33,676 nt of DNA, from NCBI GenBank assembly GCA_049999805.1, contig JBNGIO010006101.1:102684-136359 (forward strand), in the 5' to 3' direction. A model generated the notes under the pieces. That model saw nothing but the letters and a program-made list of their open reading frames with translations. It was not told the origin of the DNA and ran no database searches. Shown here in pieces: positions 515-21,032 of the stretch. Numbering within the stretch: position 1 is the first letter of the stretch; the number at the start of each line of letters is the position of its first letter. Origin of the DNA: Folioceros fuciformis. Taxonomy: Eukaryota. Position numbers and translations under genes: made by a program.

Positions 515-1397
515 GGACTCTGAGGATAGTCTGCCCTCAATAGACCCTTCGTAAACCTCTTGCATGGCCGGCGCAGCTCTGTATGGCGTGGAGACACGGG
601 GTCGGAATGCACCCCGCTGCAGTGCCAGAGATACGGACGGGCGACCTTGGGTTAACAATCCTTAAGGTAAGGAACATTCAAAGGTGAGGGCATTCCAAGG
701 TGAGGTGAGCGTAAGTTCCCAGCCTGTTACTCCTTGTGCGGCCAATTGACCTACCCTGTTCCTCTCCTTCCCTTTTTCCACAAAGTGTATACTGTTGTAC
801 ATCAATTGAGAATGTACACGCTCCATTTATATGTATGTACTTTATTTATCCGATGAGAAGTGTGTGACTCCATCCAAGTTGTGTTCAGCCGTTTGGGTGC
901 TTGATTTTTTTTACATTCTATCTTGTTGTGTAGTTGAATTGGTATGTGGAGATGGCTTTGTGGCCGTTGAAAAATGCCCTTATGATGTTGTTGGACTCTA
1001 CAATATTATATTATTTTTTTATATGTTTGTATAAAAATACTTCTAAATTTATGACATATAGACGAAGCTCTTAGGTAAGTCACACTATTTGTTGAAAGAA
1101 AGACCTTCTTGAAAGGCAAACCTCAAAGAACTGCCAATTAGAGCTTCAATTCTCTTTCAACCTCCTTCTCGTAGTAGGCTACTATGTTTAGAAGTTGACT
1201 TAGGGTCCGTAGGAACAAATTCTACTAATTTAAGTACCTTGTCGTCTCTCTAGTTTAAGTACCCTTAACTGGTGGATTTTTCCCCTTGTCCTCATAGTTG
1301 TTGACATAATCTGGGTTGTCCCCCTAGTTCACTTTCCTTAATTGGCTTGTCCCCTAATTTCCTTCCGTCATGGATTTTTCTGTCTACTTTTATAATA

Positions 1398-1487
1398 AAC
1401 TCTTCATAAAGCTTTGCCATAGTTCTCACGAAACTTTGCCACATACTCTATGAAGCTTTGCCATAGACTCCATGCAGCTTTGCCATT
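1398..1487. repeat. Degenerate tandem repeat, ~22-bp unit (actcyatgaagctttgccatag), about 4 copies
   Basis: The core ctttgcca recurs four times at ~22-nt spacing in an AT-rich intergenic region. Confidence 0.75.
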
Positions 1488-1592
1488 GATTAGGTCACGA
1501 TTTTGAGTCTTCCCTCCATAAGATTATCTAGTAACTCCAGCAAGATAAGACTCGCACTCGGGAAATGCGTTTGGGTTATTAGTCGACTCAAT

Positions 1593-2543
1593 TCAGCTGG
1601 GTTGGCTGAGGACCAACCTGGCGTTGGCGCCATCGTATAACAACCTTCCTTCACTCAGCAAGTCCCTACCAATGACAGCAACCTGAGGAAGGTCCGCGTA
1701 CCGGATGAGTAAGGATGGGAAGTGGCGTCCGCAGAAGGTGATCTCCATCCTGCTGACCAAGACCACCACGATGCCTCCCACAACTCGGATACCTCTGACG
1801 ACAGCGGCGTACTCGTCCCGGTATTCGCTATTGAGGAAGTGGAGCAGCAGAGACAGATCGAATGTGGTTTGGTTGCAGCCCGTGTCTGCCAGCACCGCAC
1901 TTTGATTGAACCACATTCTCGGGTCGCTCTTCCGGCCGAAGGACAGAGGCAGAACAGGCGCGAAGAACTTCCCGTTGGTTGCCATGAGCGCTTCCCCTGA
2001 CGACTCCAGCTCACTTCCGACTTTGAAGAAAATGCCGAAACCAGAGCCCGCCGGCTTGTCCTCAGCCACGTCCACATGGTGCTTTCCCGTGGGAACAACG
2101 ATTTGTCTGGAGACAAACACGAAATGCCCCTCGTGATTCATCCTCAACTCATCCTTGCTGCTTAAGTAGCGGCCGATGATGCTCGGAATTTCGTCATTCC
2201 CCATGCAAGCCACCACCCGGGCCAACTTCTGTAGCTTGGCCGCCACTTTGCTTTCAGGAACGTTGAAGGAGCGTTTCTGGAAAGGGAAAGGATGCTGCCG
2301 TAGAAGCTCCTGCTCTGCACCGCTTGACCTTCCCTCACTGTCTGCCCGTCCATCGACTCGGGTCCAATGAAGACAGGCCGAGGAATCATCAACAAGAGCC
2401 TTGCCCTTACCTTTGCCCTGACCCTTGCCCTTGCCTTGGCTCTTCCCCTTGCTAGTCCGCTGCGAAGCACTCGTGGCGCTCCCTCCAGCGCTTCCTGCGG
2501 CCGCTCCTGCAGCGCCATGACCGGCGCATTGTGAGTCTTTCAC
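1593..2543 (-). CDS. Intronless ORF: Gly/Ala/Lys low-complexity N-terminus plus C-terminal retropepsin-like (clan AA) aspartic protease domain; true start uncertain (GTG 2543, first in-frame ATG 2204)
   Basis: 316-codon open frame with APVLPLSF...VLADTGCNQTTF (DTG at 1878-1886), a flap-like IRVVGG, and AVIGRDLL...RLLYDG (GRD at 1662-1670). GKGK is encoded by ttgccc-type repeats at ~2398-2452. Confidence 0.7.
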   Translation of the reverse strand: MKDSQCAGHGAAGAAAGSAGGSATSASQRTSKGKSQGKGKGQGKGKGKALVDDSSACLHWTRVDGRADSEGRSSGAEQELLRQHPFPFQKRSFNVPESKVAAKLQKLARVVACMGNDEIPSIIGRYLSSKDELRMNHEGHFVFVSRQIVVPTGKHHVDVAEDKPAGSGFGIFFKVGSELESSGEALMATNGKFFAPVLPLSFGRKSDPRMWFNQSAVLADTGCNQTTFDLSLLLHFLNSEYRDEYAAVVRGIRVVGGIVVVLVSRMEITFCGRHFPSLLIRYADLPQVAVIGRDLLSEGRLLYDGANARLVLSQPS

Positions 2544-3111
2544 GTGCCTCGTCCTTTCCCTAGAGGGATTTCCAGGACAACAAAATATCCCCCCTCGTTC
2601 AGACCTTGTCTCCGAGATGTAGCCGCCTGTTCCTCCTGGTTTTCGTCATTGATCTGCATCCCATGCCATGGGAACCGTAAATCACAACCAGGATGTCATC
2701 TCGAATCGGGCAAAGCCAGCGTTCTATGCAGACCAATCTCAGCAGTGCAACGGCACGAGAGACAACCTTGATTGGCGTAGTAGGGCACAGTCTTTCCTCC
2801 ACCTGCAACTGCGGCTTTGACATAGCTTCCATCGCCTGTAACAGTGGCAGCAACAGGAAATCCATGGAGACGCTAGTTATTTTCGGCGGGATGGCTCTCA
2901 AGATACCTATGTTGCCACGGTCCCAGTCATGGCACCAGAAAAACTAGGTGAACCAAACGACTTGTCGAGCAGCATCGACATGAGCTTGAAGCTTCCAATT
3001 TTTTTGGAAGCCAAAAGAAGTTCTGCGGACGTTCCTTCAAGACATAGCGAAATTCTGATCGTGCTAAGTCGTCTCAAAAGGCAACAATACAAGAGTACAC
3101 AATATACATGC

Positions 3112-6100
3112 TCAGACGTGAAGAGCTTTATCAGTCTTGCTCGACTCCAATTTACTCAACATCTCAAGTGAGAAACAATCTTGGATCCTGTTACGCCTCA
3201 TTCGTTTGGCCTTCACCCATGCCGGCTCCTGCGCAAGCAAAGATTGTTGTTCGCCTTGTAAAGAGCACAAACATTTCGTCTCCTCTCCGGACTAAAAACA
3301 ATGTCGCAATCTGTGGACTTTACCTCTGGAACAAACCAAGAGAAACCAAACTTCGCGAGCAACAACAAATGCTCCATCACGAGAATCACTGCCAATCCTG
3401 GTTCGATCTTCCATCGTCCGACTTCATCGTACAGACATACTAGAAGTGCACAATTGGTGACGATTGCGACAACGCCAAGATGCTGCGCAATAAACAATGG
3501 TGAAGGCAGGCTCAGCGTTACGAGGTTATTGAAGGTGTTAGGCGGTTCGGAAACTCAAAACCACCGACCTGAAAAATATTTAGCCATGCACCGATGGAAG
3601 CTGCCGCATGGGGCACAGGCCGTCGCATAATAGCAAGCAACTTGAACGAATCGGATCTGATCTCCATGAGGTTGTTCTGGAAATACAGGAACAGAGAGCT
3701 CACACACCACGTGGCTGTTGAAGCCGCTAGACCAGAAAAGGACAATCCTACTATTGCGATGAAAGCTAGTAATAGAGCGTACAAGGAGTGCAAGAGCAGA
3801 AACAAGTGGGAACGCGCACGCAAACATAGTAACCATGCCGAACTGCAAAGCAAGCTCAAGGAAGTCTGCCAGCAGAAAAACGACCGGTTAGACACATGCA
3901 ACTAATGTCAGTGCATTGCAGAAGAACATCAATGACTCTCACCATCGAAAAGGCCATCCTCCCAGTCATCACAAATGCTTGCTGCATAGGGTGGCTTCAG
4001 GTATTCTTTGTGGAGTCGAGATGAGTAAAGTTTCTCACTTTTCTCTCCGGTTTCGTTCTTCTCGTCCTGCTCCGCCCTGGTTCACATGACATCATCACCT
4101 CAGTTTTCTCAGAACGCTAGTTGGAGTATTAGGTCGATGGGTAAGAGACTTAAAACCCGGATGCTGCCAGCCACATACTTGTAGGCCTTATACTGATTAT
4201 ACCGATACGAAAGGTATGGGATGAGGTTCTCCGAAACATTGTTGATCAGCTGCAAGGTGCAGGATGGCACAAATAATCATGTCACAAGCACAATGGAGAG
4301 ACAGATGGCAATCTCAGCAACCAATGCACATCGACATAACCACAGAGCTATAAACGAAATTGACCGCCGCCGGAAGCAATTTCAGTGAGAGATGTAGTGC
4401 CAAACACCTCGGAAACTATCAATCTTTCTGTCAGGATTCGACGCAGAACCTTGAAGTCTCTATGGAACAGAGCATGATAGAACAATCCGATATATGATTG
4501 CATGAAGTAGATTCCAAAAACCTGTCAATGTACAGAGGGACAACCACATGCGTGATCAGTTCAGCGAAACGCCGTCCACCAACATGGGCTAGCGAATGAA
4601 CAACCAGTGTGAACAAACCTTATATACAAGGCTGTCAGATTTTGCAGACTCTGTGGGATAACGTTGAGTTTTGGAGAGCTTCATCGCAACTTTGCCTCCG
4701 ATTCTTGTAAACAGTTGAATCGATAGAACATAAACAGCAGTAAGCGCATACCTACCATGACAGAAAAAAATTCAGAGACATGTAAGGGCTCATGAACAGA
4801 GGAAGGAAACGCCCACAAAGGTCTGCATTAAACCATGCATACACAGTCATGCCAGGTTAGTCCAGACCATATTGCATAAACCTTTTACCTCAATGCCTCA
4901 TAAGACGTGATCTTGCTGATGTGCGCATAAGTAAGTTCAAAAGGCAGCTGCAGACACAAGATCCCAGTTATCACAATGGCGTTGTTGCGAACACTCCTCA
5001 GCTGTTCCAGCCATTCATCCCTCTGGAGGAGTCTATTCTCAAGCTCGATAATACTTGACTCCACACGCTGATGCTCATTGAGCACTCCTTTCAGCAGTTT
5101 TTCTTTCTCCTGCTGGTTATAGTGTCTGCTCACAATGTGCTCACCGTAATCGGAGCTCATTCCCCACCTGCAAAGAAGAAATCAGTCATCAATGTTGCAG
5201 GCCAAATAGGTCATTATAGACATGCTTCTGAGTTACCTCGTCAAAAGCTCTGCATTTTTACGTTTCCAGAACTGCAGAAAGACCACTGCCCATATGACAA
5301 CAAATATTGAGAATAAAGATGGAACATATGGCTCCCAGAATCTGCAGCAATTTTGAACAACCGCACGTGGCTTGTTAGTCCACAGAGTCTGTACTCATCG
5401 TGCAAGCTGCACAATCATGTCAAAATTGGGTATCCCATAAACAGATTACATGCTACGGATGGAGCAAGATCTTACCCAAGATTTTTGAAGTAAAAGAACA
5501 GACCCAACATGGCAGGTAGGGCAAGCCATTGAGTGTACATCCCTAAGAAAGCAAAGTATATACCAATCTGCAAATGTCAGCCCAGGATAAGTGCCAGTCG
5601 CTCTGACCACTGTCTAGCACACTGAAATTAACTCCTCAACTCAGCTTCAGTTATTCACACATTACCTTCGCTCCGAGGTAGGTGTAAATTGCATCTATGG
5701 GCTGTGACGTGAGGCCCAACCAGTTGTATGACCAATTCTCAAGCAGCTCCTTCCGTTTGCTTTCATCTAGCGAAAGTGGTATATCACGTCAGATGACGGT
5801 AGTCTGAAATAGAATTTCAGCTCATATGACAATATAGACCTATGAAACCCATACCATGCAGAGGAAAAATCTCCTTGACAATATTGGCAGACTCTAGACG
5901 AGGTACCAAGGGCTCCCCTGGCTTGATGTCCAATACCACATCCCCGATTGATATCCGGGAACCAGATTCAAGCGCCTGTAAAGGCACATCAGATGCACTA
6001 ATACGTAAAGGAAGCACACTCATGGATCTTAAAGTTTTTGCCTCACTAGAAGAACTGCGCTGATGGCAATAGTGAGGTGTACACAATATCCTGCAATGAG

Positions 6101-6773
6101 AATTTCAGCATATCTTACAGCAGTGTGCAGTAGTGTGTCGTAACATTCATAACGCTCACTCCAGCTGAACAAGGAATTGTCATATGGCTGACGGACAAAG
6201 GCATCTTGATGCTCCCAGTCAAACACAGCATCCAGCCCTAGGCCAATCGCAATGAAGCCAGTGAGCGACCGCCTTCCACATGACAAAACAGATTAAGAAT
6301 CTCAAAGTAGAAGCCACTGTAGAGTCAGTAGAATACCGATGAAAGTGGGTTTTCTGATCTGTAGCCTTCCAGCCGTCTTTCCAATCACAGCAGGCGGGGC
6401 TGCAACCTATGCTTACATGAAGTCACCAGTTAACAACTTTCGCAATACAGACTTTGCTCACACCCAGGGTAGTCCTTCCAATTCAGGAAGCTGGATGCAT
6501 TCTAATTTAAAGTGAAGCATCACTAGACTCTTCTGCTAAATGCTCGTCTCTCTCGACCCGTACCTTGAGGAAGCAATCACTGTTCACTCCTTCAACCTTC
6601 TCCACAATCAACCCGTTGTACCGCAACAGTGACATGAGTAACTCGACGGGATCGGTTCCTTTCACTGACTTCGATTCCGGTGCCTGCGGCAGGTTGCACA
6701 CTATGGCAACCTCAAAGGACGGGCTCTCCGATTGCTGCCCACCATCTTCACTAGGATTGCTCCCCAAGGCCAT
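3112..6773 (-). CDS. Anoctamin/TMEM16-like protein (At1g73020-like), multi-exon
   Basis: ATG at 6773 (MALGSNPSE...FEVAIV). Exons give [63 protein letters not shown]...[27 protein letters not shown] and [20 protein letters not shown]. Last exon 3228-3112 EPAWVKAKR...ALHV*. GT-AG borders at the junctions checked. Confidence 0.92.
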
Positions 6774-7054
6774 AGAATGGTGAACTAAGCACCTGATAGG
6801 CAGTAGTGGGCGCGCCACTCAGAAACTGCTTCCAAGGCCTCTCCATGTTTCAACCAGGCACTTGGGCAAACGCGTCCACGATTTCCACCCTCAATGCACA
6901 CATAAAGAATGCTATACGGCCATGAGCCTCACCTAGTAGAAAGATTCCAAGGGATTCCTGCCCTGGTGCAACACAGATCTTCAATCCCGCAGCGTGCTCG
7001 TCAGGTCGGCTGACTTCGACAGCAAATCACCCAACAAACGCATCCCCTGCGTAC

Positions 7055-8005
7055 ATGGAACAGAAGCGGGTGAAACATTTGCAGACAAGAAAACTGATCA
7101 ACCCCAAGAATCGGACTCACCTGTGTCGCAGCCAGCGCTCCTGCACAGAAACGCTCGGGATCAAGCACAACATTACCCAACGCAGTGCGCGACGCCACGG
7201 ATGGTACACCATAGCTCAAGATGAAGCTGCCACCTACTACCTGTGCGCAGCGGCCAAGTGGTGGCCACGCCAGGTGTAATTCGGGACCCGATATAAATAT
7301 GTAATCTGGTCGTACAAATCCTGATAGAATAATCCCCTGATGAATCACCCCCGAACTTCCTTCAATTCGATAGGTGTACGTTCACCTCCACCCATTTCTG
7401 GGGCGTGGGCTGGTGGTCCTTACCATTGCGGGATCAAAGGCTTGTGGCCAAAATGCATGTTTGTCACAGGTTTATGCCTGCTTCCATGGATTAAGCTGTG
7501 TACCGGTCAGATTATTCTTATCGATATATACGGGAGTCCTCATTGATAAGCTTTCACTAGCGTGATGGCTCTGTCTAGCAGTCCCACCAGTACCTACCCC
7601 ATTACAGTAGTTCATCACCGTGCGAACTGCTGCTTCGGCTTCGATCTGCAGCTTAATGAGGTGATTGAAGATGTGGCATGGCTGACCCATGGAGGAGGCT
7701 ATTGTGAAAAAAAAGTTTTCGAGGAGCCTATCAAACCAGGAGCCGAGCTGATGATCTACAGGTGAACGTTGGTGCGTGCTTTGATTGAGCATGAGATGTT
7801 CGTACGATGAAAGCTGTGACCCATCCTTTGTCCTCCATGCTCTTGATTGCCGTAATTCTGCGGCAGAGCTGAGAACCCACAAATTGTCACCAGTCCTGAA
7901 GAGAAAATCATCAAGGATTCCCATGAAATGCGGCGCGCAGAACACATGAAAAGGAGGCAAGCAATACAGTCACTCCTTGTGATTACAGCACCAGCCAAAT
8001 CTTAA
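7055..8005 (+). CDS. Putative spliced gene of unknown function, divergent from the anoctamin gene; 5' structure unresolved
   Basis: Two phase-compatible exons: ~7651-7760 (ctgcag|LNEVIEDVAWLTHGGGYCEKKVFEEPIKPGAELMIYR|gtgaac) and ~7867-8005 (ggcag|AENPQIVTSPEEKIIKDSHEMRRAEHMKRRQAIQSLLVITAPAKS*). The upstream ORF MEQKRVKHLQ... ends at a cag|gtgtaa donor, but I could not join it cleanly to these exons. Confidence 0.35.
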
Positions 8006-8291
8006 ACTTTTGCAAGGTTGTGCTGTGTGCAAGGTTGTGTTGTATTGAGTCCGAACCCAGACTTTTCATGAGCGCCATCGTAATTGTGCGGGAACGGTTG
8101 GACCACAGCGTGGATCCTCGAGCTCTCTTTAGAAGCGCAATTCAGTACTGCTTTCCGGTTCCCAGTTAGATGCTGACTTGAATTTGTAAGGAGTCTTTTG
8201 TCCCTACGTGCTCGGTGGGAGGAAAGGCACTGCGCAGTCCTTGGGCCTCCGAATGGCAGAAGGGGAGCGAATTCGTCCTGTTGTCAACAAT

Positions 8292-8301
8292 NNNNNNNNN
8301 N
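8292..8301. other. Assembly gap (10 N)
   Basis: Run of ten n characters. Confidence 0.99.
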
Positions 8302-8436
8302 TTTGTTACCTCTTGTTTATCTCCCGGCCCTTGATGTGGAGAGATTAAGGGAAGACCGAACGAAGCTCTGAGTCATGGTCGAATTCAAACAGCAAAATCG
8401 ACGACATCCTCCCTAAAGTTCGATGTCGATGGCCGA

Positions 8437-8510
8437 TGGCCCATACAGGTCTCGAACCTGTGACCTTCGCGTTATTAGCACGACGCTCTAACCAACTGAG
8501 CTAATGGGCC
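8437..8510 (-). tRNA. trnI-AAU: tRNA-Ile (anticodon AAT), intronless, eukaryotic nuclear type
   Basis: Reverse complement GGCCCATTAGCTCAGTTGGTTAGAGCGTCGTGCTAATAACGCGAAGGTCACAGGTTCGAGACCTGTATGGGCCA shows acceptor stem GGCCCAT/ATGGGCC, D arm, anticodon loop CT-AAT-AA and T loop GTTCGAG. Confidence 0.97.
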
Positions 8511-8629
8511 AACTGACATAACAAGGAAAATTATGTATATTTTAATTCTCTTGACTGCAAAATCTACACACTCAAGAACAAATGAAAAAAAATCGTTGAA
8601 CTTCACAGTACAACCCTTGACGTAACATC

Positions 8630-9245
8630 CCGTGAGCCAGATGCCTCCACGTAGTTACCCAGTTTTTTTCCAAGCACCTATCACCTTGAGCCAAACTGCA
8701 GCCCCGGCAATTCAGGCAGTGCCAAAACTAGTGCCTTACGAACCAGGCAGGTAGGCAGATCACAGAAAATCTGTGACGCATGTGCAGTGCTCCACCGTGG
8801 AGTGACGCTGCGCCGTCATGCTCGTAGCTGCCAAGTACTCCCTCCCCTTCTTCACCGGAGCTGGATTTGATTTATGGCAAGCCATCAGAAAACTCTGAAC
8901 ATGGTGGCAAATTGCTGGATGGTGTCCTCTCTCATTCTCTGAACCAGGTCTGAGGCTGCTGCACTGTCCCTTTCTGAGGAGTATCCTGCGATAAACGAAA
9001 TCCAGGCCACTAGGTCTCTTTCAGGCAACAAACCAAAAACCTGGTGTGCATGAAGCACGCACCCAGACTTTTCATACACGTTCATCTAACTGCCAGCGTC
9101 AAGTACATGAGCTGCGAGCCCTTCCTCTTCAACCTGTGCATGCAGCTGTCTTCCGACATGCAAAGCTGCCTAATTTGCACATGTCTGCAGGAGGAACACA
9201 AATGTAACGGAACTGCATAAATCCGGGCTTCTTCTTGCATGACAC
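8630..9245 (-). pseudogene. PLS-class pentatricopeptide repeat (PPR) pseudogene fragment running into S2/E1-like motifs
   Basis: Minus strand reads MQEE...(frameshift)VTFVFLLQTCAN*AALHVGRQLHAQVEEEGLAAHVLDAGS*MNVYEKSGCVLHAHQVFGLLPERDLVAWISFIAGYS, then FLMACH...KKGREYL...TVEHCTCVTDFL*...AAVWLKVIGAWKK. These match L, S, P2, L2, S2 and E1 consensus patterns, with several stops and frameshifts. Confidence 0.85.
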
Positions 9246-9398
9246 AGCGAAGGGAAAGGGTTCCTTTCTGAAATGAAAGTATCTAAGGATACTTTGTTAT
9301 GAGGATCGGTGACTCATTTCTTCAAGGCTTAAATGATTGGCAGGTCCATTACCAGCAGCATCACTATCAAATGCATACTGCAAAATTGATCTACTACA

Positions 9399-10355
9399 TG
9401 AACTCTATCGTTCACTCTTCAATGACCCTTGAACTCTAACATTCACTCTTCAATGACCCCTCTCTACTCAAGTGGGAGCTGGGAGCTACATTGAACATTG
9501 GTCGACCCTTTTGATGAGATTGTGCTCAATGTGGAGAATCTATTATAAATAAAAATATGAAGAAAGAATGTGGAGAATCTATTGTAAATAAAAATATGAA
9601 GAAAGAATGATGGTATTAAGTGGTAGAATATTTTTCTTATTTTATGATGGTCTTAAGTGACGGAAATCCTATAATTATCTATCTAAGGAGCATGTTACCA
9701 CTCTCAAATTGTAATAAGTTTTGGTTTGCGAACGAACATGTTACCACACTCAAATTGTAATAAGTTTTGGTTTTATCTTGGTCATTGCATTATTGACTGC
9801 ACAATCTAGTCATTAGATTAAGCTTGTAGACCAGACTAGTGACTGTTGTTCTAGTTGTTTTCAACAAGAGATGCACCTCACTTTCCATACACCACCATGA
9901 GACCACAATTCTAATCACAAGGCTCAAGGACTGTAGACCAGACTAGTTAGTATTGTTCTTCTTATTTTCAACGAAAGATGCATATCACTTTCGAACATAG
10001 TGCCGATGATGAATAATACTTCACTACAAAGACCCCACCAGGAGCCCTGGGCTATGACATCACAAAGGCAAGGATTGAGGAGTAACATCAATTTGAGTTT
10101 AGGAGCTCAAGAATATGGAAACACTTGATTGTTTAGGAGCTCAAGAATATGGAGACACTTGATTGTTAGTTTCTGTAGGAGTTATGTGCTAGGAAGGTAC
10201 ACATTGATTCTGACCAGTGTATAGCGTTGTGCTCATCACCTAGCCATCTTCTTGAAGACGTCACAAGACCATGACCACTTGTTGGCGCCCTAACTACAAT
10301 CCACATATAGAAATTATTTGTTCCATAGGAGTTATAAGCTAGGAATGTACATACT
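9399..10355. repeat. Six separate two-copy direct repeats with periods 31, 39, 46, 107, 34 and 150 bp
   Basis: Copies start at 9399/9430, 9528/9567, 9691/9737, 9825/9932, 10097/10131 and 10176/10326. Confidence 0.85.
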
Positions 10356-15133: not shown

Positions 15134-15572
15134 GCGTCTGATCCGTTTCACACCTCCGCCGAAACAGCCTCTGGTTTCGAAACGTAGGTTCCTGTCCCAC
15201 GTCCAGGAGGTCCGCAGAGCAGAACCCAGACGTTGAGACGTCTCGTGGTTAGAAAACCTTGCAAAACGGAAAACGTTTAACGCGGGAGCATGGCGAGGAC
15301 AACGTGTATGCTCGATGATGGACGAGTCCGAGCCCGAGCCGAGGACAGCCAGCAGATCCACCCGTCCAGCTGCTGCCTTCCTTTACGTCGGTCAGGCTCG
15401 GTCGGCTGATCTCGCTTGCTGTGCGCGCGCAGGCTTGCCCTCGGGTCCTGACTCGCTCTCGGCCCCGGTGACTCCATTGTCTTCTTTTCCGCCGGGCGGC
15501 AATTTCTCGATCTCCGAGGTGCCGGATCTGTCGACCCTTGCTGCCTGTGTTGCTGGATTGCACAATTAGCCG

Positions 15573-15574
<2 letters not shown>

Positions 15575-15610
<36 letters not shown>
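15575..15610. repeat. Poly(A) tract (36 nt) in the divergent promoter region
   Basis: Uninterrupted A run between two divergently oriented genes. Confidence 0.95.
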
Positions 15611-15611
<1 letters not shown>

Positions 15612-16209
15612 AGGCCCTGGATTCTGGGATCGGCGGGATGTGTTAGGATGTTGCTGGCGCTTGGGTAGGTGGCTTGTGTTCTTAGAATTGCCACAGGCAG
15701 GAGTTTGGGAAAGGTTGTGGGATGGCAATGTGCCAAGGTCGTCTGAACCCGTGCACCGCCAGCTGAATAGGTGATTGTTGTGCTGTTTTTGCTTGGTGAA
15801 AGTATGAGTCCGTGTTGTTCAAGAACCTAGGGTCGGGGGACGCGTAGCTGGAGCTGAGAAGGTGCTGGAACTGGAGCTTGAGGTTTAGATTGTCTGGATT
15901 TTCATCTCGTTAGGTGCTTACTTTTTTAGTCCATCCATGCCGCGCCGTCTGGTTCAAACTTGGGGACAACATGTGGAGTTATTCCGCTGTCAGGAAGTGC
16001 ATCTCATTTGCTGAACATTGGGAAGATTACCACAGATCTGATGCGGGACACACCGGCACATCGAGACAGGGCTTGGAACATAGTCACTCGCGGGCATCCC
16101 GGGAATTCTCTGCTATGCTTGGGACTTAGCGCTCTCATACCAAGGCGAATTTCTTGATCTCCAGCGTTGGGAACTCGTCTGCAGTCTACTCCTCCGAAAA
16201 GACACGAAC

Positions 16210-19969: not shown

Positions 19970-21032
19970 ATGCCTGATTCAAGTCAGAAATGCGAGGCGT
20001 CGAAGCATGTAGGTTTCCCATCCCCCGTTTCCTTTTGCAATTGGTTCTTGATCGCACAAAGCTGTGCGGTGACTGACAAAGGCCCTGTCCATTGCTGTGG
20101 ATCAGGCGGAATCCCGCATGTGCATGTGCACCCTGTGCACTTGCGGCCTTCACCACTGCCCGGTGAAGCACACTTCGTCCTTGATTCACTATTCCAAGGA
20201 TACCATGTCCGAGTACATCCACAAGTATCCCAAATGGCCTCTCCCGGAGCACAAGAAGATTAGGCCTAAGGAGAATCTCAAGAACGATGCTAAATTCGAT
20301 GGAACAACCACGTACTTCTCAGACTTCGACAAGAAGAAACTTCCGGAAAAGGTAACCTACAACAAATCGGGCCCCAGCCTGGAGTATAATATGCCTATGG
20401 GGCAGCACTACAAGGATCCCAATTCTGAGTACGTCGATCGGTACAAGAAACACGCTCTTCCTCCCAAGGTTATTCGCAGGCCTCCAGGTCCAGACCCCAA
20501 CACCGCTCCCTTTGATGACACTACCACCTATAGGAATGACTTCCCCAAGCACCCTAGCTGCGCTAGGGCGTTGATGCGGCCTCAGAACAATGAATACTTT
20601 ACGGGGGCCTTCGACGATCACACCACTTACAAAGTGGACTTCACGGACAAATCCAAGGGAATCAAGCCCGTGAGAAAAGGCCCAGTGCACCAGCTGGTGT
20701 CCTCCGGCCCCTTTTACGGTGTCACCACTCATCAGGCGGACTTCGGGCCCAAGGCTCTGGCTAAGCGAGCCACTCCTGTTATCTATGGGGCCAACGTCTT
20801 TATAGGCAAAGGGCCGTTCGATCCAGAAACAACTTACCACCACGATTACCAGAAATGGAATGTTCCGACGCGCGCCCCGATAAGAAAAGATTGTCTCCCA
20901 AAGAGCGATGCCAAGTTCGATGGTATGTCCATATACACCACCGACTACGTACACGTTCCTGTTATCAACCGATGCCCCGTGCTCTTGCGGCCTAAGCCTA
21001 ACGTCGTTGTCGGAGATCACATATGCTATTGA
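19970..21032 (+). CDS. SAXO: Stabilizer of axonemal microtubules (SAXO/FAM154, MAP6-related) protein; short first exon plus long second exon
   Basis: Exon 1 MPDSSQKCEASKH|gtaggt (an upstream ATG at 19928 is also possible), exon 2 from 20106. N-terminal CMCTLCTCGLHHCP motif and repeated Mn-like motifs FDGTTTYFSDF, FDDTTTYRNDF, FDDHTTYKVDF, FYGVTTHQADF, FDPETTYHHDY, FDGMSIYTTDY at ~34-aa spacing. Confidence 0.9.

Follow-up and report, generated by a model that had tools for sequence, protein, structure and literature searches.

An intronless open frame in the genome of the plant Folioceros fuciformis contains, in residues 84–316, what appears to be a complete copy of a small two-domain protein family, in which an N-terminal domain of about 105 residues would be followed by a retropepsin-like domain of about 125 residues. 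This family most probably belongs to giant viruses (Nucleocytoviricota), and the plant copy would be a solitary captured viral gene, flanked by two host genes in convergent orientation. It is fairly probable that this gene was taken up from a giant virus and is now a transcribed relic, untranslated or weakly translated, which has not yet decayed.

The open frame and its protein family

The window, that is, the whole stretch of 33,676 nucleotides analysed, carries the frame on its minus strand. The domains, motifs, upstream extension, stop codons, ATG and intron given below are on this strand too, and two tandem repeats have no strand assigned. The intronless frame of 316 codons plus stop described in the original prediction is present at 1593..2543 (its first codon is GTG under table 11), inside a stop-to-stop span of 350 codons at 1593..2645, and the strings quoted there are all found in the translation, for instance APVLPLSF at residues 195–202 and LLYDG at residues 301–305. 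The conserved unit, residues 84–316 (1596..2294), is the sole part with relatives. A full HMMER scan of 1,835,955,588 representative proteins returned 25 of them at E ≤ 1e-3 (best 3.7e-38), all unnamed, of 77–249 aa and aligned only to codons 83–309 of the query, so that, judged by sequence, the frame is better than chance. A profile search gave 16 matches, all unnamed environmental proteins, and no relatives from retroelements were found. Plant- or other eukaryote-named proteins are absent from both sets, and named prokaryotic relatives amounted to zero at E ≤ 1e-3 among the 1.84 billion representatives and to zero at E ≤ 1 in the profile search; family members other than the plant copy derive from environmental assemblies. 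The frame alone matched only EBNA2_Core in Pfam (E 0.091, on its low-complexity part) and no protease family at E ≤ 10, gave five rows at E ≤ 10 against the PDB in phmmer, none of them a protease, and in a word-index search yielded no hit at E ≤ 0.01 from 7999 scored candidates. In IMG/VR no member was confirmed, the four scans (with two alignments, P0009 and P0001) giving 15, 45, 3 and 2 pattern stretches.

A profile built from 30 members matched the EIAV protease at E 6.5e-4, and nearly all of the 60 rows listed were retroviral proteases or DDI1. Pfam matches at E ≤ 1 were obtained with gag-asp_proteas for 13 of the 30 members, with RVP for 12 and with Asp_protease_2 for nine, the best E value being 5.4e-4; the relation to these three is at the level of clan or fold, and is not membership of an existing Pfam family. 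No relative exceeds 274 aa, and all are stand-alone proteins with their own N-terminal domain and a conserved C-terminus. This N-terminal domain (residues 84–190; 1974..2294), modelled as three helices and short strands, had been taken for an unknown middle domain gained in the plant, but is the family's own conserved N-terminal domain, found in all full-length relatives.

Within the family, the window copy is the most divergent. It keeps the fewest family-conserved residues (0.54 versus 0.63–0.80 in 15 other rows), the C-terminal FTRH ending of the family is replaced in it by LSQPS, and it forms the longest branch of a tree with midpoint root only (1.71 versus a median of 0.76), its composition being deviant as well. 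It groups with six rows (clade A, support 100/99) that come from short Logan contigs. The homologous length of 233 codons is fully open, and GC3 and GC2 over these codons are 0.70 and 0.41, versus a GC of 0.46 in introns; both this GC3 and the GC1/GC2/GC3 pattern are what a coding sequence typically shows.

Upstream of the conserved unit, the frame stays open through a non-homologous extension (2295..2645) whose GC by codon position, 0.62/0.65/0.51, shows no coding pattern, and which includes a 12-nt tandem repeat (2396..2443), the source of the GKGKGQGKGKGK run. The proposal that the protease had been fused to a new basic Gly/Lys-rich N-terminus is not supported, as this stretch has neither relatives nor a coding GC pattern nor an ATG; it is probably an untranslated leader and not an N-terminal domain. 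A TGA at 2646..2648 closes the frame upstream, 5 nt past the only splice acceptor observed (2653). The first in-frame ATG is codon 114 (2202..2204), and it is preceded, downstream of that acceptor, by five out-of-frame ATGs at 2649, 2529, 2518, 2389 and 2353. According to the structure model, a start at Met114 would cut off the first helix of the N-terminal domain. In the reading preferred here, the frame is structurally intact and transcribed, and its translation is probably poor or absent.

Fold and predicted dimer of the retropepsin-like domain

Modelling and a Foldseek comparison, suggested along with the original prediction, were carried out on residues 84–316, and the AF2 model (pLDDT 89.4, pTM 0.86) has a retropepsin fold in its C-terminal half, residues 191–316 (1596..1973; model residues 108–233). 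Foldseek retrieved 172 PDB chains at E ≤ 1e-3, the best 50 of them all lentiviral proteases, and VIA gave the C-terminal domain a Z of 7.9 to foamy-virus and EIAV proteases (rmsd 3.1–3.3, with 91–100 residues aligned). The catalytic-type Asp-Thr-Gly, D220 T221 G222 (1878..1886), reads DTGC in the window copy, and its D220 and G222 are invariant in the family alignment. VVGG, residues 254–257 (1773..1784), is aligned with the flap Gly-Gly of the EIAV and HIV proteases, and VIGRDLL, residues 290–296 (1656..1676), corresponds to the hydrophobic-hydrophobic-Gly-Arg-Asp motif of retropepsins. Fold, profile and motifs therefore all back the single-lobe retropepsin-like domain, with one DTG and one IGRD, that had been predicted, and the single lobe of the model sets it apart, as had also been claimed, from two-lobed pepsins. 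The N-terminal domain alone has no clear solved look-alike: its best VIA Z is 4.2, with no chain at Z ≥ 5, Foldseek found no chain at E ≤ 1e-3 and 27 at E ≤ 10, and a language-model atlas gave no usable match to residues 84–190; no fold was assigned to the domain, which does not amount to evidence of a new one.

The predicted symmetric dimer scored 0.71 against 0.00 for the best control, a score that may reflect memory of solved retropepsin dimers. Among proteins of known structure, 21 of 30 same-chain pairs attain this mark, whereas none of 23 single chains does. The dimer runs had at least 92% of their contacts in common, with a partner pLDDT of at least 78, and the closest contact joins T138 to T138 (model numbering) of the two DTG loops. 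If the protein is made, it would pair through these loops and the end strands into a symmetric dimer, in which two Asp220 residues may build one active site under the Gly-Gly flaps, as in retroviral proteases. This mechanism is proposed from the fold, the motifs and the dimer prediction.

Retroviral proteases (the retropepsins of EIAV, HIV-1, SIV and foamy virus) form family A2 of MEROPS. The plant protein resembles them in its single-lobe fold (Foldseek E 4.5e-5, TM to target 0.53–0.72; VIA Z 7.8–7.9), in the alignment of DTG, Gly-Gly flap and hydrophobic-hydrophobic-GRD, and in the predicted dimerization through the DTG loops. Unlike them, the members of this family are not cut from a Gag-Pol polyprotein and have their own conserved N-terminal domain of 105 aa, and the likeness in sequence is marginal, the window copy having no match to a Pfam protease family. 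Retropepsin-like structure is also shared with Rickettsia APRc (5c9b) and Pseudomonas PA0462/RloA2 (9g59), with VIA Z of 6.8–7.0, and the architecture is reminiscent of bacterial retropepsin-like or DUF5678 plus Asp_protease_2 proteins, which are stand-alone or two-domain proteins of about 140–290 aa with such a domain at their C-terminus. However, no sequence relation to the bacterial forms was detected, and the searches brought up no member of the family in any prokaryotic record. DDI1 is likewise a cellular, non-polyprotein retropepsin-like dimer (the profile reaches yeast DDI1 at E 0.22, and Toxoplasma Ddi1 has a VIA Z of 6.7), but the match is not significant and the N-terminal domain is different. 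The earlier distinction from DDI1 holds, since UBL and UBA domains are absent both from the window copy and from the 25 families most matched by the 30 members, and the N-terminal domain has no ubiquitin-like match.

Genomic setting and the probable link to giant viruses

The neighbours are intron-rich, as had been stated. Run X2 is taken as RNA solely on account of the spliced joints in its contigs; 15 of these joints, GT..AG or CT..AC, are listed and five more exist besides, and both DNA runs are without them. One X2 contig spans 1490–2508 without any joint. In DNA contigs from two runs, and in an RNA-type contig of a second sample, the frame is present with no differences and joined to both neighbours; the RNA-type contigs covering it derive from a sample other than that of the assembly. 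The frame is flanked by a Nucleotid_trans gene (exon 11–514) and an anoctamin-like gene; the remaining frames of the window are of host type (Nucleotid_trans, Anoctamin, WD40, SAXO1-2 and kinase). An intron at 2654..2766 (CT..AC on the plus strand), spliced out in an X2 contig, connects the last coding exon of the anoctamin-like gene (2767–3227) to the exon that leads to the protease frame. As the stop codon of the anoctamin-like coding sequence is at 3112..3114, the protease frame lies downstream of this stop, on the same transcribed stretch. Transcription of the plant copy would thus be continuous with the last anoctamin-like exon, in contigs that give neither strand nor proof of a single RNA spanning that exon and the protease frame. 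On the other side, the two transcribed regions converge, and a 22-nt tandem repeat (1406..1485) separates their 3' ends.

The giant-virus affinity of the family is deduced from metagenome contig L001, which encodes the member P0007 with 100% identity; P0007 belongs to the other clade of the family and is the one relative whose genomic context was read. It lies 585 bp from a gene for a MutS with the I-III-V-HNH arrangement. MutS7 proteins occur also in bacteria, and the best prokaryotic relatives of this MutS in 185,579 prokaryotic species genomes are only 31–34% identical; among the 120 best matches listed from metagenome proteins, identities run from 30% up to 75%. MutS7 is defined by domains I, III and V plus HNH, as described in PMC3166940, and is presented in PMC6163669 as the protein distinctive of Mimiviridae. 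L001 is dense, with 36% GC (range 0.32–0.41), and Pfam gave no match for 11 of the 18 ORFs scanned; the contig also encodes three HET ORFs, a Hint ORF, a 300-aa ATP-dependent ligase and a GH5 cellulase, and its 19 kb contain no capsid, PolB or other hallmark gene. By its gene content, the contig looks like a Mimiviridae genome. A giant-virus family is considered most likely because P0007 has a MutS7-type neighbour on this dense and AT-rich contig, whose content is Mimiviridae-like. Two more members have a longest contig equal in length to that of MutS relatives (69,007 and 66,491 bp) and may therefore share contigs with them; another member, P0022, is encoded on a contig of 1,020,498 bp. The Mimiviridae early-promoter-like octamer AAAATTGA was rejected as a virus sign, because its seven occurrences in L001 against 2.85 expected, a number reached in 6 of 200 shuffles, are too weak.

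Giant-virus genes have a precedent in plants. NCLDV-like ORFs of Physcomitrella patens and Selaginella moellendorffii are described as transcriptionally inactive, methylated clusters of up to 16 ORFs (PMC4083422, Maumus et al. 2014), in an article whose main text does not contain the words protease, peptidase or MutS. The present case is similar in that a gene of giant-virus affinity is found in a plant-type genome with flagellated cells, as suggested by the SAXO1-2 gene in the window. It differs in being a single gene inside a gene-rich, transcribed stretch, and the window contains no further virus-like ORFs beside the protease frame, such as those of GEVEs.

Origin and present state of the plant copy

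The original prediction spoke of a horizontally acquired or domesticated protease. Acquisition is retained as the likeliest origin, given that no annotated plant relatives exist, while domestication is not the preferred state: the plant copy is more likely an undecayed relic with little or no translation than a working plant protease. It is only the missing start that suggests a relic, since the open frame and the GC3 and GC2 values fit selection or a very recent arrival. A domesticated gene, working as a homodimeric aspartic protease and translated from Met114, from a non-AUG codon at about residue 80 or from an unseen exon, is the alternative to be taken most seriously, unlikely as it seems. 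The frame is intact over its homologous length with DTG, GG and IGRD kept, its GC3 is far from the intron value, RNA-type contigs from another sample cover it, and it preserves 0.54 of the conserved columns versus 0.22 of the variable ones, all of which speaks for a working gene. The upstream TGA, the out-of-frame ATGs, the truncation that a Met114 start would cause, the altered C-terminus, the lowest conservation score of the 16 rows and the absence of plant relatives from the protein searches speak against it. In a more elaborate and distinctly improbable version, the family, seen here for the first time, would be an undescribed one of giant-virus proteases, with a new N-terminal domain joined to the retropepsin domain and a place beside MutS7 in Mimiviridae-like genomes. 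A plant lineage with flagellated sperm would have captured one copy and domesticated it as an expressed gene with unconventional translation, either by a non-AUG start or by reinitiation in the 3' region of the anoctamin-like mRNA.

The direction of transfer could also be the reverse: giant viruses would have taken over an old eukaryotic gene family, from plants or algae, and the copy in the window would be the host's own, inherited vertically. Giant viruses often carry host-derived genes, and the six clade A rows nearest to the plant copy may have a source other than a virus; yet this reading is quite improbable, considering that all 25 HMMER and 16 profile matches are unnamed and environmental, and that the plant copy is intronless among many-intron neighbours, has no start codon and stands as the tree's most derived row. 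Even less credit is given to acquisition from prokaryotes, which had been suggested on the basis of a resemblance to small prokaryotic predicted aspartyl proteases; the bacterial proteins in question combine DUF5678 with Asp_protease_2 or RVP. The ten best Pfam-carrying matches in the language-model atlas have a family or clan in common, and the atlas rows listed are 83–100% bacterial clusters of 141–288 aa with DUF5678, Asp_protease_2 or RVP; in addition, PA0462 (Z 7.0) and Rickettsia APRc (Z 6.8) are within 1 Z unit of the retroviral structures in VIA. However, the atlas scores (0.80–0.89) fall short of the 0.9 mark and are no more than leads, the N-terminal domain has no usable match there, DUF5678 (PF18929) is matched by none of the 30 members at E ≤ 1, no prokaryote-named protein occurs among the HMMER or profile matches, and the only relative with genomic context sits on a Mimiviridae-like contig. 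Finally, a fragment derived from the protease of a retrovirus, a caulimovirid or an LTR retrotransposon would explain the retroviral fold and motifs, and badnavirus and caulimovirus polyproteins are among the BFVD matches (E 5e-5 to 5e-4). This origin is extremely improbable and close to refuted: the relatives are short stand-alone proteins with an N-terminal domain and conserved C-terminus of their own, and the flanks consist of spliced host genes without any gag, reverse transcriptase or integrase frame, in agreement with what had been noted before. In addition, tblastn found no second copy of the protein in the window, and no flanking long, direct or inverted repeats suggesting transposon insertion were found, just short pairs at chance level.

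Retropepsin-like proteases are already known from retroelements, DDI1 and some bacteria. In a literature search judged by titles and abstract openings, no paper linked a stand-alone two-domain retropepsin to giant viruses. If the virus link is false, the frame is still a clean case in which deep profile searching, together with structure prediction, resolves an orphan-looking sequence. If the link is true, the family would be a new candidate for an enzyme that Mimiviridae-like viruses use in processing or in attacking the host, and its captured copy in this plant would add a transcribed single gene to the few giant-virus footprints in land-plant-type genomes, described so far as silent clusters (PMC4083422).

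The protease frame and its conserved unit

The original prediction placed a 316-codon frame on the minus strand at 1593..2543, and this frame is present, with GTG as its first codon (table 11) and a stop-to-stop extent of 350 codons (1593..2645). The motifs it quoted were all located, namely APVLPLSF at residues 195–202, DTG at 220–222 (bases 1878–1886), VVGG at 254–257, VIGRDLL at 290–296 and LLYDG at 301–305. Searched with the frame's own sequence, Pfam gave a sole match (E 0.091) on the low-complexity part, the PDB sequence search matched no protease, and a word-index search scored 7999 candidates, none at E≤0.01. A full HMMER pass over 1,835,955,588 representative proteins recovered 25 relatives at E≤1e-3, including 11 at E≤1e-10, the best being P0001 (E 3.7e-38, 34% identity). 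These relatives are 77–249 aa long. Since all 25 align to query residues 83–309 only, and the full-length ones begin a few residues upstream of the plant motif HPFPF (residue 84), the alignments indicate that residues 84–316 form the conserved unit of a rare, unnamed family. Most full-length relatives end in FTRH, in place of which the window copy carries LSQPS. The ten clusters looked up hold 1–4 members each, drawn from Logan, ENA and JGI, with NCBI occurring once, and their sole annotation is 'hypothetical protein'. A profile search added 9 members, full-length or partial, and none of its matches has a precomputed Pfam domain or an informative name. One family member, P0022, is recorded on a 1,020,498-bp ENA contig, which may be either a cellular chromosome or a very large viral genome.

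The retropepsin reading is borne out at the level of fold and motif. The 30-row family profile matched EIAV protease (E 6.5e-4) in an alignment that extends from DTG to IGRD and includes the GG flap. Retroviral proteases and DDI1 account for nearly all of the 60 profile matches listed, apart from two OmpA-family chains, SDS3 and a clumping factor. Single members scanned against Pfam at E≤1 matched gag-asp_proteas (13/30), RVP (12/30) and Asp_protease_2 (9/30), the lowest E among them being 5.4e-4. At this threshold the window copy matched none of the three and, judged by sequence, would not belong to an existing Pfam family. An AlphaFold2 model of residues 84–316 (pLDDT 89.4, pTM 0.86) retrieved 172 PDB chains by Foldseek at E≤1e-3, of which the best 50 are all HIV, SIV or EIAV proteases (TM to target 0.53–0.72), and the predicted fold matched 35 viral models in BFVD at E≤1e-3. 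In VIA-align, against 48,161 chains, foamy-virus, EIAV, HIV and RSV proteases rank first over model residues 108–233, with Z 7.9–7.2, values below 8 that on their own can reflect a common arrangement. The cellular look-alikes follow by at most 1 Z unit (bacterial PA0462 7.0, Rickettsia APRc 6.8, Ddi1 6.7). The retropepsin call rests on the agreement of VIA-align, Foldseek, the motifs and the sequence profile.

Two copies are predicted to pair symmetrically, with a score of 0.71 against 0.00 for the best control. Among proteins of solved structure, 21 of 30 same-chain pairs attain this mark, compared with 0 of 23 single chains. Contacts agree between runs to at least 92% (pLDDT ≥78), and the predicted interface consists of the DTG loops (model residues 135–141) and residues 213–224, although retropepsin dimers are already solved and the predictor may be reproducing them. 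The putative enzyme would thus be a symmetric dimer in which two Asp220 share a single active site, and the GG flaps would close over its cleft. Readings as a pepsin or as DDI1 were excluded.

What had been taken for a newly fused 'unknown middle domain' is instead the family's own N-terminal domain, because residues 84–190 are conserved across the family. Folded alone, this segment (pLDDT 88.3) forms three helices and short strands. No solved chain reached Z 5 in VIA (best 4.2), and Foldseek returned no chain at E≤1e-3.

Transcription and the missing start of the window copy

Two contigs of the DNA set X1 cover 290–2152 and 2136–8000, one of the DNA set X3 covers 125–1949, and one of the RNA-type set X2, from another sample and study, covers 1490–2508, all with 0 differences. 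The frame is solidly linked to the host. Among the X2 joints listed, at least 15 have GT..AG or CT..AC ends (5 further joints were found), they are absent from every DNA contig, and arithmetic on the depth table leaves the intron stretch 2671–2766 without X2 coverage; X2 behaves as RNA. Its joints define the last anoctamin-like coding exon (2767–3227, minus strand) and an intron (2654–2766, minus strand) linking it to an exon that begins at 2653. The anoctamin-like stop, a minus-strand TGA at 3112–3114 (spliced joints, Pfam Anoctamin), lies about 345 nt upstream of this intron, which therefore falls in the 3′ untranslated part of the transcript. Introns in that position usually mark an mRNA for nonsense-mediated decay. 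Alternatively, a second transcript may start inside the last anoctamin coding exon.

The RNA-type contigs cover the frame and show no usable start. All three frames entering the exon at 2653 reach stops by 2540, the protease frame being closed by a minus-strand TGA at 2646–2648. Downstream of 2653, the ATGs at 2649, 2529, 2518, 2389 and 2353 lie outside the protease frame; an in-frame ATG first occurs at codon 114 (2204), where a start would delete the first helix of the N-domain in the model. The supposed new basic Gly/Lys-rich N-terminus proved to be a 12-nt tandem repeat at 2396–2443, with GC by codon position of 0.62/0.65/0.51; the homologous part is coding-like (0.56/0.41/0.70). The anoctamin coding sequence has a GC3 of 0.52 and the introns a GC of 0.46. 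In a leave-one-out count of 16 rows, from which five near-duplicates and all rows shorter than 200 aa were omitted, the window copy matches the consensus at 43/80 conserved columns (0.54), the lowest value against 0.63–0.80 in the other rows, while its match at variable columns (0.22) is ordinary. The window copy is therefore structurally whole, transcribed and coding-like, without a usable start and with somewhat more erosion than is seen in any relative.

Exactly between the 3′ ends of the two convergent transcribed regions, at 1406–1485, a 22-nt tandem repeat (ATGAAGCTTTGCCATAG-like) is present in three to four copies, and the RNA contigs break there. Elsewhere, a second intronless frame (20073–21032, plus strand, 319 codons, GC3 0.65) with repeated FDGTTTY-like motifs matches Pfam SAXO1-2, stabilizer of axonemal microtubules (E 9.4e-11), which implies an organism with flagellated cells. 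A tRNA-Ile(AAT) sits between protein-coding genes at 8435–8511 on the minus strand (Rfam 68.3 bits, ARAGORN). A minus-strand frame at about 15250–15820, in a region of 55% GC, passes through 11 Phe codons (a poly-T/A tract) and probably reflects a simple repeat within untranslated or promoter sequence.

Genomic setting of the relatives and origin of the window copy

The genomic context of the family was read from one relative, P0007, over 19.2 kb of the 20,974-bp metagenome contig L001, which is densely coding (32–41% GC), with Pfam matches in 7 of 18 ORFs scanned. P0007 (10001–10711, plus strand) lies 585 bp from a divergent gene (6608–9415, minus strand) encoding a 935-aa protein with MutS domains I, III and V (IV weakly) and a C-terminal HNH. 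The combination MutS I-III-V-HNH defines MutS7 (PMC3166940), described as the sole protein unique to all sequenced Mimiviridae and found also in epsilonproteobacteria and octocoral mitochondria (PMC6163669). The contig further carries three consecutive HET (heterokaryon incompatibility) domain ORFs (1179–6341), a Hint-module ORF apart from them (15726–16112), a 300-aa ATP-dependent ligase and a GH5 cellulase; capsid and PolB genes were absent from the 19.2 kb. Scanning 185,579 prokaryotic species genomes with a MutS alignment gave 264 pattern matches, 217 of them confirmed, and the best 80 of these, mostly Campylobacterota and Patescibacteria, are 31–34% identical to the L001 protein; metagenome proteins reach 75% among the matches listed. 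On this contrast, L001 is very probably a Mimiviridae-like virus contig. The longest contig is 69,007 bp for both family member P0008 and MutS relative P0064, and 66,491 bp for both P0159 and P0047, which hints that P0008 and P0159 each sit on the same contig as a MutS7 relative, and the neighbourhood may be a conserved linkage. Against a viral reading, four scans of IMG/VR found no family member.

In a maximum-likelihood tree of the 21 of 30 alignment rows with at least 200 aa (midpoint root only), the window copy groups with P0001–P0005 and P0026 (support 100/99), and P0007 and the long ENA contigs fall in the other clade. Its end branch is the longest (1.71 vs a median of 0.76) and its composition deviant. 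Its relatives in this clade are FYMINK-rich like the virus-side rows (0.31–0.47 vs 0.23 in the window copy). These relatives come from unattributed sources, so nesting within viruses is a candidate placement rather than a demonstrated one. Transfer from host to virus is given a smaller weight. So is a bacterial origin: a language-model atlas puts the whole frame nearest to bacterial DUF5678/Asp_protease clusters, but at 0.80–0.89, under its 0.9 mark, and no sequence search confirmed the relation, so that the prokaryotic source first proposed is unsupported. The retroelement reading was excluded, yet a small residual weight is left on a retroelement fragment. That this start-less copy is a working domesticated plant gene seems unlikely.

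Of the sources considered, a giant-virus gene family has the best support, which comes from one contig and indirect links. Plant precedent exists in the NCLDV-like ORFs of Physcomitrella and Selaginella, which differ in being silent and clustered; the main text describing them (PMC4083422) contains no 'protease', 'peptidase' or 'MutS', and its supplements might list such a gene. On balance, the window copy is somewhat more plausibly than otherwise a giant-virus gene that was captured, is transcribed within the 3′ portion of the anoctamin-like transcript and is probably translated poorly or not at all.
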